DNA of 64,000 nt, taken from the NCBI RefSeq assembly GCF_003018255.1, contig NZ_CP027440.1. One strand, written 5' to 3'. The DNA comes from Escherichia coli. Its GTDB lineage: Bacteria > Pseudomonadota > Gammaproteobacteria > Enterobacterales > Enterobacteriaceae. Under the pieces are notes generated by a model that ran no database searches, had not been told where the DNA came from, and saw only the letters and a program-made list of their open reading frames with translations. Numbering within the stretch: the stretch's first letter is position 1; every line of letters begins with the position of its first letter. This document shows, piece by piece, positions 3,183-56,629 of the stretch. The position numbers and the translations under genes were made by a program.

Positions 3183-4310
3183 TTACTGCGGATATTCCTG
3201 CAATAAATTGTGTAATGCTTCCGCCATCAGCTCACCACGCCAGCCGGAAATCAGCTCCGGCAAATTGTTCTGCGGTTTCAGTTTCCAGTGCCAGTTCAGC
3301 AGTTGGTTGATTTGCCGACGCGATGCCAGCAATTCGGCGCTGATCTTGTGCGTTTCGCTCACGTCAGTAATCAGCGACTTAATCGCTTTAAACGCTTTAC
3401 GATAACCCGGCATGTCCATCAGGTTAAGCATCGGCTGCGGTAAGGCCTCTTCCGGCAATGCCTGCGCTTTTTCCACCAGCGCCAGCAGCGTTTTACCGTG
3501 AAAGCGGATTTCGCTACCGGATAAGCCCAGGCTGTCCAGTTCGCCTAAACTTCCCGGCATATAACGCGCTACGGACCACAAATGCTCTTCACGCACGACA
3601 AAGTTCACTGCCAGATCGCGCTCCCGCGCCTTGCGCAGTCGCCAGTCGGCTAACAGTTGCAGACAGGCCAGTTGGCGTGTGCGTAACTGCCAGGCATTGG
3701 TGATATCACGCCAGGCATCTTCCGGAGCAACGACTTCCTGACGACGCATTTGCATCAGGCGGCATTCATCCAGCGCCGCAGGTAGCCAGCCGGAGGCCTC
3801 CGTTTCTACCATAAGCTTTGCGGTGATCGGTAACAGATACCAGACATCCGCCGCTGCGTATTCACACTGACGTTCGGTCAGCGGTCTGGCCAGCCAGTCG
3901 GTGCGCGATTCACTCTTGTCCAGCGTAACGCCGGAATACTCTTCCACCATGGAAGCGAAACCCCATGACATCGGGCGTCCGCAGAAGGCAGCAAGGATTT
4001 GCGTGTCAATCAAGGGTTGTGGTAATTCGCCAAAGACATTGAGGAACACTTCCAGATCTTCACTGCCCGCATGGAGAAATTTTGTGATGGACGGATCGCG
4101 CAGGATCGCTTTCAGCGGTGACCAGTCAGAGATCCCGAGGGGATCAATTAGCGCCAGATGCTCACCATCAAAAAGTTGAATTAGACCCAGTTGCGGGTAA
4201 TAGGTGCGCGTACGAACAAATTCAGTATCCAGGGCTATCGCCGGAAAGGCACGGACGGCTTCACACAAAGAAGCCAGCGCATCGTCCGTGGTAATCATTT
4301 GGTAATTCAA
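3183..4310 (-). CDS. rnd: Ribonuclease D, 375 aa
   Basis: ORF 3183..4310 minus; translation matches RNase D (3'-5' exonuclease plus HRDC domains); length exact. Confidence 0.95.
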   Translation of the reverse strand: MNYQMITTDDALASLCEAVRAFPAIALDTEFVRTRTYYPQLGLIQLFDGEHLALIDPLGISDWSPLKAILRDPSITKFLHAGSEDLEVFLNVFGELPQPLIDTQILAAFCGRPMSWGFASMVEEYSGVTLDKSESRTDWLARPLTERQCEYAAADVWYLLPITAKLMVETEASGWLPAALDECRLMQMRRQEVVAPEDAWRDITNAWQLRTRQLACLQLLADWRLRKARERDLAVNFVVREEHLWSVARYMPGSLGELDSLGLSGSEIRFHGKTLLALVEKAQALPEEALPQPMLNLMDMPGYRKAFKAIKSLITDVSETHKISAELLASRRQINQLLNWHWKLKPQNNLPELISGWRGELMAEALHNLLQEYPQ

Positions 4311-4379
4311 ATTGTATTCTCTTTAGTGGGCGTCAAAAAAAACGCCGGATTAACCGGCGTCTGACGACTGACTTAACGC

Positions 4380-6065
4380 TCAGGCTTTATTGTCCACTTT
4401 GCCGCGCGCTTCGTCACGTAATTCTCGTCGCAAAATTTTTCCGACGTTAGATTTCGGTAACTCATCACGAAACTCCACCAGCTTCGGTACTTTGTAGCCC
4501 GTGAGCTGACGGCGGCAAAAAGTCACCAGTGACTCTTCGGTAAGTGATGGATCTTTTTTCACAACGAAGATTTTCACCGCTTCGCCACTGGAGCCAGAAG
4601 GTACGCCAACAGCCGCGACTTCCTGTACGCCAGGATGCTGCATGACGACATCTTCAATCTCGTTGGGATAGACGTTAAAACCGGAAACCAGAATCATGTC
4701 TTTTTTACGATCGACAATACGCAGGAATCCTTCTTCATCCATCACCGCGATGTCGCCAGTGTGTAACCAGCCATTTTTGATGATTTCATCGGTAGCATCC
4801 GGACGCTGCCAGTAACCCAGCATCACCTGCGGTCCTTTGACACAAAGCTCACCTGGTTGACCCGGTGGTACTTCGTTGTCGTCGTCATCCACCAGTTTGG
4901 CTTCCGTCGACGGCACCGGCAAACCGATGCTACCACTATGATAATCAATATCATACGGGTTAACGCTGACCAGCGGCGCACACTCGGTCAGGCCATAACC
5001 TTCCAGCAGATACTGCCCTGTCAGTTTCACCCAACGTTCTGCCACCACTTGCTGAACAGGCATCCCACCGCCTGCGGAAAGGTGCAGACTGGAGAAATCC
5101 AGCTGCTGGAACTCTTTATTGTTCAGCAACGCATTGAATAAGGTGTTAACGCCAGTGATAGCGGTAAACGGATATTTCGCTAACTCTTTTACCAACCCTG
5201 GAATATCGCGCGGGTTAGTGATAAGCAGGTTCTGCCCACCCAGTTCGATAAACAGCAGGCAGTTAATGGTCAGTGCAAAAATGTGATAAAGCGGCAGCGC
5301 CGTCACCACCAGCTCTTTGCCCGGATGCAACAGCGGACCATAGGTCGCGTTAACCTGTTCCAGGTTCGCCAGCATATTGCGGTGAGTCAGCATCGCGCCT
5401 TTCGCCACACCAGTGGTACCGCCGGTGTATTGCAGGAAAGCTAAATCTTCCGGCACCAGTTCGGGTTTGACGTACTGCATCCGGTAGCCGTTGTGCAGGG
5501 CGCTACGAAATGAAATGGCATCTGGCAGATGGTATTTCGGCACCAGACGCTTGATGTATTTAACAACAAAATTGACTACCGTGCCTTTTGCCGTAGATAG
5601 CTGATCGCCCATACGGGTCAGAATTACGTGCTGAACGGCGGTTTTATCAACCACTTTTTCCAGAGTGTGGGCAAAGTTAGACACGATAACAATCGCCGAT
5701 GCGCCGCTATCGTTAAGCTGATGCTCAAGTTCACGCGGGGTATACAACGGGTTAACGTTTACGACAATCATCCCGGCACGCAAAATGCCAAACAGCGCCA
5801 CCGGATATTGCAATAAATTAGGCATCATCAACGCAACGCGATCGCCTTTCTTCAGTCCCAACCCTTGTTGCAAATAAGCGGCAAACGCGCGACTGCGTTC
5901 TTCCAGTTTGCGGAAGGTCATCACCTCCCCCATATTCACAAACGCGGGTTGATCGGCGTAGCGCGCGACCGACTGCTCAAACATATCTACCAGAGATTGA
6001 TAACGGTCAGGGTTGATCTCCGTCGGAACGTCCGCGGGATAACGGTTAAGCCAAACCTTCTTCAA
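4380..6065 (-). CDS. fadD: Long-chain fatty-acid CoA ligase FadD, 561 aa, TTG start
   Basis: ORF 4380..6131 minus; known N-terminus [10 protein letters not shown] begins at the TTG codon at 6063-6065; AMP-binding motif [12 protein letters not shown] present. Confidence 0.93.
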
Positions 6066-6137
6066 TTCTTCACCTCTAAAATGCGTGTTCGTCGTCATCG
6101 CAACCCCAAATGATATACATGCCGTTAACATAATATT

Positions 6138-21078: not shown

Positions 21079-21105
21079 CCGGGGCCTTTTGGCCCCGTTT
21101 TTTTA
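21079..21105 (+). terminator. manXYZ intrinsic terminator
   Basis: ccggggcc-tttt-ggccccg stem-loop followed by ttttttt. Confidence 0.75.
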
Positions 21106-23377: not shown

Positions 23378-23468
23378 GACAACTCCGGCAGGATACTAAA
23401 GGCCGCAAGTGTAACGCGAATCACGCGGCGGGCAAATATCCGAACGACTGGAGCGAAGATAAAGCAAA

Positions 23469-23497
23469 GTAAAAAGCCTCGCATTCGACGAGGCTTT
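23469..23497 (-). terminator. cspC intrinsic terminator
   Basis: Minus-strand RNA forms gcctcg / cgaggc stem followed by uuuuu. Confidence 0.7.
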
Positions 23498-23542
23498 ATA
23501 GCGAGATTGAAGCGTATTCACACTTCAGATCAGTGGATTCGA

Positions 23543-23752
23543 TCAGATAGCTGTTACGTTAACAGCTGCCGGACCTTTCTGACCGTCCTGAATTTCGAAC
23601 TCAACGTTCTGACCTTCAGCCAGAGTTTTGAAACCATTACCCTGGATAGCAGAGAAGTGTACGAACACGTCTTTGCTGCCATCAGCCGGAGTAATGAAGC
23701 CAAAACCTTTAGACTCGTTGAACCACTTAACCTGACCTTTAATCTTTGCCAT
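23543..23752 (-). CDS. cspC: Cold-shock-domain protein CspC, 69 aa
   Basis: ORF 23543..23752 minus; [20 protein letters not shown] with RNP motifs. Confidence 0.96.
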
Positions 23753-23764
23753 TTGAAAAATTCC

Positions 23765-23908
23765 TTAGATTGTTTTCTTCGCCCGCAGGCATAACATAGA
23801 TAAAACTGACACATTACTGCATGAGGCACCAATATAAGGCTCGGCAGAGAAGCGGTATTCAACGTCAACGTGTTTACTCAGGACTTCTTTACTGAAAATG
23901 CCACACAT
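23765..23908 (-). CDS. yobF: Small stress-induced protein YobF, 47 aa (co-transcribed with cspC)
   Basis: Manual minus-strand translation [47 protein letters not shown]; ends 12 nt before cspC start; below ORF-track cut-off. Confidence 0.85.
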
Positions 23909-24532
23909 AAACAGAACTGTACCTCGTTTAACCCGAAATCTGTTATCACATACAACGTTAATTATGGCAAGCCATTTTTAAACATGTCTCGATCAGACGC
24001 ACAAATCTCGATACGTCTTCCACTTTTTTTGCACACTTATGCAACGGAATACGCGCCGATATATCATTGTGCTTAACCTTGCCAGTTCAGGCAGATACTT
24101 AAACTGACGTATTTTCTAACATAGTTCAATAAGTTCAGTTGTTCCAGGCCAGTGGGAGAAGTTATTACATAGTGCGTGCAATATCACATTTTCTGCTATG
24201 CAATGAATAAAAAGTTATATCACTTTTTCTCATAAAACAGTCAGTTAACGGCTATCGATCACCCCAAAGAGAAGTCAATCGCCAAAGGTATTGTAAATTT
24301 AAAATAAGAAAAATTGATGAATGCGCAAAAAAATCAAGAGAGAAACGTTTCGCTAATAAATAATACCACGCTTAATCACAAATCCGATGTAAACATCCTA
24401 ATAAATTAATGGGCTAAATATCTTTTTCTGATATCCCGTTACGCAAATAAATAATATGATAATTATTTGAAGTCAGACCAGAGTTTTAATTTGAAGCAGT
24501 TGCACCATGACAGTGCGTATAATCAGGATGAA

Positions 24533-27966: not shown

Positions 27967-27997
27967 AAAAAGCGCGTCGATCAGGACGCGCTTTTTA
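27965..27997. terminator. Bidirectional intrinsic terminator between convergent yebQ and htpX
   Basis: aaaaaa-agcgcgtc-gatcag-gacgcgct-ttttt. Confidence 0.75.
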
Positions 27998-39322: not shown

Positions 39323-39571
39323 TAACAAGAATGTTAAAAAACGCTGGACGCAGACAGTAGAGTGTGTGTTATGGTTGACTATAAAGTCAGCGAAGGGAAT
39401 GCTTCTGGCTTTTAACAGATAAAAAGAGACCGAACACGATTCCTGTATTCGGTCCAGGGAAATGGCTCTTGGGAGAGAGCCGTGCGCTAAAAGTTGGCAT
39501 TAATGCAGGCTTAGTTGCCTTGCTCTTTAAGAATAGATGACGACGCCAGGTTTTCCAGTTTGCGTGCAAAA
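39323..39571 (+). ncRNA. ryeA: RyeA (SraC) sRNA, antisense partner of SdsR (boundaries approximate)
   Basis: Non-coding pphA-yebY spacer; plus-strand transcript position inferred from recall of the ryeA/ryeB overlapping arrangement. Confidence 0.5.
39421..39523 (-). ncRNA. sdsR: SdsR (RyeB) sigma-S-dependent sRNA
   Basis: Minus strand reads GCAAGGCAACTAAGCCTGCATTAATGCCAACTTTTAGCGCACGGCTCTCTCCCAAGAGCCATTTCCCTGGACCGAATACAGGAATCGTGTTCGGTCTCTTTTT, ending in a terminator hairpin plus U-tract. Confidence 0.8.
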
Positions 39572-56510: not shown

Positions 56511-56629
56511 GCTTTTCCAGTTTCGGATAAGGCAAAAATCAATCTGGTGATAGTGTAGCGGCGCAACTTGCCCCGCACCAAATAAAAAAAGCCGGTACTG
56601 ACTGCGTACCGGCTGCGAATGGATGTTAA

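Follow-up and report, generated by a model that had tools for sequence, protein, structure and literature searches.

Organization of the fadD–rnd locus

The window, that is, the whole 64-kb stretch of Escherichia coli DNA analyzed here, carries fadD and rnd as co-oriented neighbors on the minus strand. The locus is defined by three features:

3183–4310, minus strand: coding sequence of rnd (RNase D; b1804), 375 aa, start codon TTG at 4310–4308, from the open reading frame (ORF) list and the K-12 annotation.
4311–4379, minus strand: fadD–rnd spacer, 69 bp.
4380–6065, minus strand: coding sequence of fadD (b1805), 561 aa according to the K-12 annotation, start codon TTG at 6065–6063, stop codon TGA at 4382–4380.

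The spacer is bounded by the fadD TGA and the rnd TTG, exactly where a sequence-only reading of this DNA had placed it. The rare start codon UUG is used by both neighbors, fadD (TTG at window 6063–6065, minus strand) as well as rnd. In the mechanical ORF list, fadD was extended to an upstream ATG at 6131, giving 583 aa compared with the 561 aa annotated.

In the fadD–rnd region, the K-12 MG1655 coordinate equals the window coordinate plus 1883681. The window and K-12 are identical from 4317 to 4496, and a single SNP separates them at 4316. This SNP, the sole K-12 difference within 4204–4496, is located between the rnd ribosome-binding site (RBS) and the TTG, and reads AGAGAATACAAT here and AGAGAAAACAAT in K-12; one of the compared loci (L003) shows a third variant, at the base adjoining 4316. 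Of 5426 complete E. coli genomes, 5425 contain the 301-bp region around the spacer, 5282 of them with at least 99% identity.

A Rho-independent terminator in the spacer

The spacer contains a hairpin that runs into a stretch of U:

4342–4360, minus strand: terminator hairpin core of 7 bp, with ACGCCGG at 4360–4354, loop TTAAT, and CCGGCGT at 4348–4342.
4335–4342, minus strand: U-tract of eight U, the first T of which is also the last base of the stem.

The acgccgg/ccggcgt stem and the eight U after it had already been described from sequence, and we find them as stated. The hairpin had also been said to follow the fadD stop codon directly, but a linker of approximately 19–21 nt (4379–4361) intervenes. 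The stem can be extended to 8–9 pairs (AGACGCCGG/CCGGCGTTT, 4362–4340) via A-U and G-U pairs. The 7-bp core alone folds with −12.4 kcal/mol; the 28-nt segment 4362–4335, which forms an 8-bp stem, reaches −14.4 kcal/mol.

A loose terminator scan was non-discriminating, with one site found and 1.2 expected in shuffled sequences. With a strict pattern (a perfectly paired stem of 7 bp or more containing at least four G/C, a loop of 3–8 nt, and then at least seven T), four sites were detected on the two strands of the 64-kb window, compared with an average of 0.01 across 100 simulations of a first-order Markov model (~400-fold excess). The other three strict-pattern sites are located at 21080–21097 (plus strand), 27972–27991 (minus strand), and 56591–56613 (minus strand).

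Published Term-seq data place minus-strand 3′ ends at K-12 1888017, 1888018, and 1888020, corresponding to window positions 4336, 4337, and 4339 (Adams et al. 2021, PMC7815308). These are three separate table entries, and they fall on the 7th, 6th, and 4th U of the run. The tables assign them to fadD/sroD as its primary 3′ end and also describe them as lying 27–29 nt upstream of the rnd ORF (PMC7815308). The 3′-end mapping that had been suggested as a check on the hairpin is provided by these data, with every end inside the U-run. The hairpin and U-run are a Rho-independent terminator at the fadD 3′ end that is also contained within the rnd leader. Separately, one of the Term-seq tables lists a minus-strand 3′ end internal to rnd at K-12 1887883 (window 4202), ~108 nt into the coding sequence (Adams 2021, PMC7815308).

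SroD at the fadD 3′ end

The terminator also forms the 3′ portion of a small RNA:

4336–4421, minus strand: SroD, 86 nt, comprising the last 13 fadD codons, the stop codon, the 3′UTR linker, and the terminator; Rfam RF00370.

In a whole-window Rfam scan, RF00370 (sroD) was matched over model positions 1–86 of 86 at 4421–4336 on the minus strand, scoring 115.2 bits where the gathering score is 50. At E ≤ 1 over 4200–4500, only noise was returned besides sroD (snoR9, 16 bits; gathering score, 90). The RNA is SroD itself and not an analogue, as locus, strand, and sequence are the same as those of the RNA from the RNomics screen of Vogel et al. (2003; Rfam RF00370; EcoCyc G0-9384). The context of the family, at the fadD 3′ end, upstream of rnd and on the same strand, is found here from the ORFs and the K-12 annotation. 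The sequence-only reading had named SroD as an sRNA at the fadD 3′ end, and the full-length match together with the Term-seq ends in the U-run bears this out. The interval that it gave, 4311–4379, covers only part of the RNA; the 3′ end at 4336 does lie in that interval, but the 5′ part extends to 4421, with 39 nt (4421–4383; 42 nt with the stop codon) inside the fadD coding sequence.

The current RefSeq K-12 record (NC_000913.3 1888017–1888102) lacks an sroD feature but does list ryeA and sdsR; sroD is kept in Rfam and in EcoCyc, whose identifier G0-9384 is used in the Term-seq tables. Elsewhere in the window, the antisense pair SraC/RyeA (39417–39561, plus strand, 176 bits) and SdsR/RyeB (39421–39520, minus strand, 114 bits) gave full-length Rfam matches. 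The cspA thermoregulator model matched at 23468–23928 on the minus strand (139.7 bits; gathering score, 78; with a patchy 5′ alignment), on a cold-shock-protein paralogue that is probably cspC by its K-12 position (~1.907 Mb).

The SroD 5′ end at 4421 is the boundary of the Rfam model rather than a mapped end. A promoter upstream of 4421 was considered and found to be unsupported, as no convincing hexamers were seen and codons 277–285 of fadD showed no synonymous freeze of the kind described below. No start site with the prefix 188810 occurs in the parts of the Cappable-seq table examined, which slightly favors processing, and the Ettwiller 2016 and Kim 2012 supplements contain no entry at the coordinates of the fadD–rnd spacer or SroD. 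Because neither promoter-like conservation nor, in the tables examined, a start site was found upstream of 4421, SroD is most likely cut from a longer fadD mRNA rather than transcribed from a promoter of its own. One article likewise places SroD among the sRNAs processed from longer transcripts, describing it as generated from a 3′ UTR, FadR-repressed, and of unknown function (PMC8313858).

Transcription start site and promoter of rnd

SMRT-Cappable-seq supplementary file 4 lists a b1804-only unit with its start at 1888063 reverse (Yan et al. 2018, PMC6131387). In the same file, fadD units begin at 1889807 or at positions upstream of it and do not extend past b1805, a fadD–rnd unit is not listed, and the b1804 entry is marked 'same' with respect to RegulonDB (PMC6131387). 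In file 6, b1804 has a single operon context in both columns, which most likely represent two growth conditions (PMC6131387). The start site and the hexamers that we propose for it are as follows:

4382, minus strand: transcription start of rnd, coinciding with the T of the fadD TGA (K-12 1888063 reverse).
4389–4394, minus strand: putative rnd −10 hexamer GACAAT, in fadD codons 297–298 of the last 300, ending 6 nt before the start site.
4412–4417, minus strand: putative rnd −35 hexamer GTGACG, in fadD codons 289–291 of the last 300.

The two hexamers are separated by 17 bp and match the consensus at 8 of 12 positions. A consensus promoter scan called no promoter in the fadD–rnd spacer region, because a match at only 8 of 12 positions escapes it. 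Zhang and Deutscher are said to have mapped the rnd start ~70 nt upstream of the UUG, and the hexamers agree both with this distance and with the mapped start site.

Synonymous variation was analyzed in the last 300 fadD codons, using 73 distinct sequences from 80 Enterobacteriaceae rnd loci. Only 3.8% of the 261 informative codons were fixed, defined as a single codon in at least 97% of the 73 sequences. Eight of the ten fixed codons (CGA, GAA, CGT, GAC, GAA, AAA, GAC, and AAT) are found within the last 15 fadD codons, and both lowest-entropy six-codon windows also fall there, over and beside the hexamers. Aligned at the DNA level, the −10 region is invariant at exactly the bases that it shares with TATAAT. 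This pattern points to a weak sigma-70-type promoter for rnd within the last 14 fadD codons, although a constraint acting on SroD RNA, and not on a promoter, could also account for the frozen synonymous sites.

The sequence-only reading held that the 69-bp spacer must carry both the RBS and the promoter of rnd. This was half right: the RBS-like AAGAGA (4323–4318) is in the spacer, but the start site (4382) and both putative hexamers (4417–4412 and 4394–4389) are within fadD. The same reading had also asked whether rnd has its own promoter inside fadD, which the start site at 4382 and the candidate hexamers in the last 14 codons support. As for a promoter within the spacer, TTGACG at 4336–4331 resembles a −35 hexamer; no usable −10 lies 16–18 bp from it, it is not conserved (TTGGCG or ATGGGC elsewhere), and Cappable-seq lists only the start at 4382. 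We rejected this candidate.

The rnd leader

With transcription starting at 4382, the terminator becomes part of the rnd mRNA, together with three further features:

4311–4382, minus strand: rnd 5′ UTR, 72 nt, containing the hairpin and the U-tract; 47 nt if ended at 4336.
4329–4334, minus strand: conserved G+C box that follows the U-run without a gap and reads GACGCC in this sequence, and GGCGC or ATGGGCGC in other loci.
4318–4323, minus strand: Shine-Dalgarno-like AAGAGA, 7 nt before the TTG.

The U-run is located inside the rnd mRNA, upstream of the RBS and 24 nt before the UUG. According to papers that cite Zhang and Deutscher, 30S subunits bind to this U-rich region in vitro, and the region stimulates the translation of rnd in vivo (Zhang & Deutscher 1992); the U-run is reported to be required for 30S binding and for translation of the UUG-initiated rnd mRNA (Zhang & Deutscher, PNAS 1992). 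Their leader element (PNAS 1992; JBC 1989) comprises the same eight U upstream of the RBS and UUG. The leader that they studied begins upstream of the hairpin, as confirmed by the start-site data at 4382. They considered the element in the rnd mRNA only, whereas its role in SroD and as the fadD terminator belongs to a separate literature. This published translational enhancer was missed in the sequence-only reading. The element as such is already known, from two literatures (SroD, 2003; the rnd leader, 1989–1992) that deal with the same 30 nucleotides.

Conservation across Enterobacteriaceae

The comparison was made among Enterobacteriaceae loci only. The hairpin was retained in all 79 loci, and RNAalifold analysis of the 67 distinct sequences identified the terminator hairpin as the sole conserved structure. 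A standard pair was never lost at any of the seven core pairs in these 67 sequences, and compensatory changes were present, CG to UA in three (Cedecea-like) and GC to AU in six (Kluyvera).

The arrangement downstream of the hairpin was similarly stable. Across the 79 loci, the U-run has 5–9 T and its end lies 23–29 nt from the start codon; in 77 of them, 7 nt separate the end of AGAGA from the start. The start codon of rnd is TTG in 75 loci and GTG in four; ATG was found in none. The spacer is 67–74 bp long in 72 of the 74 loci in which it could be measured. The G+C box creates an AUG immediately after the U-run in 43 of the 79 loci, in a frame relative to rnd that varies. We considered an upstream ORF starting at the AUG in UUUUUUAUGGGCGC and rejected it; this ORF is in frame with rnd in Enterobacter, has four codons in Klebsiella, and overlaps the GTG start in Kosakonia.

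By contrast with the hairpin, the 5′ domain of SroD in the Rfam model showed no conserved structure in RNAalifold (67 sequences). The linker (4379–4361), which is the only non-coding single-stranded part of SroD, was the least conserved stretch of the alignment. RF00370 passed in 19 of 20 diverse Enterobacteriaceae loci with 54–109 bits, in the same fadD–rnd context in each of those, and scores in this range are largely due to coding conservation and the terminator.

Loci in which fadD and rnd are set apart

Two groups provided natural experiments. In Dryocola boscaweniae (locus L080, 2170–2500), the C-terminus of fadD differs and the gene has its own terminator, AGCCGG-TACTA-CCGGCT followed by T5. 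After this fadD terminator come ~130 nt of unrelated sequence, and the hairpin, U6, ATGGGCGC, AAGAGA, and TTG still adjoin rnd. RF00370 had no match at this Dryocola locus.

Two Citrobacter loci (L011 and L017, 2270–2500) carry a ~140-bp insertion between fadD and rnd, flanked by a 20-bp direct duplication of the hairpin (ACGCCGGGTGAATCCGGCGT). The U-run is kept only in the hairpin copy adjoining rnd. The insertion has inverted repeats of its own (GAGGTGATC...GATCACCTC) and looks like a small mobile element that targeted the hairpin; a shorter, related insertion remnant was seen at another locus (L009).

The Dryocola and Citrobacter arrangements indicate that selection keeps the hairpin and U-run for rnd. 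They likewise indicate that the fadD terminator role, and hence SroD, is a consequence of the usual adjacency of fadD and rnd.

Alternative explanations

One alternative is that SroD is a trans-acting 3′UTR-derived sRNA, dependent on Hfq or ProQ, which is released upon induction of fatty-acid catabolism and pairs with target mRNAs. A stable hairpin with a tail of up to seven U would suit such an RNA, as would the (ARN)x motif noted at SroD nt 31–54 in an Hfq study. Growth-phase-specific expression has been reported for SroD, as has control by FadR, and the frozen synonymous sites in the 5′ half could in principle represent a seed. Nevertheless, a conserved, accessible seed was not found: the non-coding linker is the least conserved part, the 5′ domain has no conserved structure, and in both spacing and identity the frozen sites correspond to −35 and −10 hexamers correctly placed for the mapped rnd start. 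Overexpression of SroD gave no phenotype in a biofilm, motility, and fimbriae screen (87 ± 14%, no calls; PMC4606813). In the work of May and Silhavy, sroD was dispensable for the fadD-linked phenotype tested, and no target was reported in the literature found by free-text search. We consider a trans-acting role unlikely; a conserved regulator of this kind is less probable here than a stable by-product.

A second alternative is that the hairpin and U-run constitute a regulated attenuator of rnd, in which a factor or an alternative structure, for example one involving the G+C box, sets the level of RNase D. A strong-looking terminator does stand between the rnd start site (4382) and the start codon (4310), 3′ ends are detected there, and conservation extends beyond the U-run to the stem, which shows compensatory changes and stays with rnd where fadD has its own terminator. 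The G+C box after the U-run is likewise conserved. An outer helix, in which the box pairs with sequence 5′ of the hairpin, appeared in the single-sequence minimum free energy (MFE) structure of 50 of 67 leaders, yet it was absent from the RNAalifold consensus of the 67 sequences. When the box–upstream duplex was compared with shuffled upstream segments, pairing was not clearly better than composition predicts (mean z −0.77; p ≤ 0.05 in 8% of sequences). No conserved antiterminator pairing was found, and the box is transcribed only past the termination point. In addition, the frame of the AUG after the U-run is inconsistent among species, no Rfam riboswitch or leader family matched, and Term-seq is blind to the promoter from which terminated RNAs originate. 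Regulated attenuation is accordingly an improbable reading of the leader.

The synonymous freeze in the last 15 fadD codons might alternatively arise from a constraint at the RNA level, either an RNase E site or SroD structure, instead of an rnd promoter. The motif of RNase E is RN|WUU. The frozen CGA-GAA (4427–4422) lies just upstream of the SroD 5′ end, and GA|AUU near 4421 resembles this motif. However, the 'UU' comes from a Leu codon that is variable (TTA, CTG, or TTG), leaving the motif unconserved, and the other frozen sites correspond to hexamers 17 bp apart with the mapped start 7 nt downstream. The invariant −10 bases are, moreover, precisely the ones shared with TATAAT. An RNA-level origin of the freeze is very unlikely in our view.

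That rnd has no promoter and is expressed solely by read-through of the fadD terminator, an outcome that would have undercut the sequence-only reading, might be suggested by the co-oriented genes, the short spacer, and the negative consensus scan, but is extremely improbable given the capped (triphosphate) 5′ end at 4382 and the monocistronic b1804-only transcript in a single operon context, with which RegulonDB agrees (PMC6131387).

Discussion

We favor the explanation that one Rho-independent terminator serves both fadD and rnd on the same strand, as the end of fadD and SroD and as an element of the rnd leader, and we assign it a probability of roughly 0.85. According to this explanation, fadD transcripts end in the U-run at 4336–4339, as the Term-seq ends mark it, and SroD (4421–4336) would be the terminator-protected 3′ end of fadD mRNA, its 3′ end fixed by those data and its 5′ end probably generated by cleavage. 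Transcription of rnd begins at the mapped start, 4382, from its own weak promoter, presumably through the hexamers proposed above, and the 72-nt leader of every rnd mRNA includes both hairpin and U-run. Some of the rnd transcripts would stop after ~47 nt and the rest would read through. In the read-through mRNA, the U-run would act as the translational enhancer described in the literature, offsetting the weak UUG and the modest AAGAGA. The module of hairpin, U-run, G+C box, RBS, and UUG would, in evolutionary terms, belong to rnd, with fadD termination as a second use.

The terminator looks strong by its sequence, and the explanation leaves sufficient read-through into rnd unaccounted for. Read-through is presumably adequate, and the short distance of ~40 nt between start site and terminator may be the reason. 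The early transcribed sequence influences termination efficiency.

SroD is similar in origin to the processed 3′UTR-derived sRNAs CpxQ, SroC, DapZ, and MicL-S. These sRNAs have conserved seeds, Hfq dependence, and known targets, none of which was found for SroD; unlike them, SroD is approximately half coding sequence and its linker is poorly conserved. The rnd leader can likewise be compared with the trp, pyrBI, and pyrE attenuators, with which it shares an intrinsic terminator between start site and start codon and 3′ ends in the 5′ UTR. It differs from those attenuators in that no leader peptide in a conserved frame, antiterminator alternative, or ligand-sensing fold was detected, and in that its U-tract is reported to promote translation besides stopping transcription. 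Besides functioning as an ordinary intrinsic terminator, the element would serve rnd in the manner of a U-rich enhancer that binds S1 or the 30S subunit.

A further possibility, which we judge quite unlikely, is that the hairpin, U-run, box, RBS, and UUG form a dedicated control element of rnd, as opposed to a terminator that merely happens to fall within the leader, and that SroD and the 47-nt leader, which have this hairpin and U-tail in common, could compete for the same factor. If the control element were real, the stem and the GGCGC box would set RNase D output; they might adjust read-through close to the promoter, or else make the U-run accessible to S1 or the 30S subunit. If the competition were real, induction of fadD would be linked to RNase D synthesis.

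Returning to the single shared terminator, its value as a discovery is small, with SroD (2003) and the rnd U-tract (1989–1992) both published and modern 5′- and 3′-end maps in agreement. What is new here is the conservation of the whole module over 79 Enterobacteriaceae loci. Modest new support comes from the frozen synonymous sites, from an rnd start codon that is never AUG, and from the retention of the module beside rnd in Dryocola. The locus is an example of dense signal overlap, in which one hairpin and U-run serve as a terminator, as the 3′ end of an sRNA, and as the translational enhancer of the next gene, and in which the promoter of rnd appears to be written into the synonymous sites of the last codons of fadD. 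Annotation pipelines and analyses of synonymous rates should expect embedded signals of this kind.
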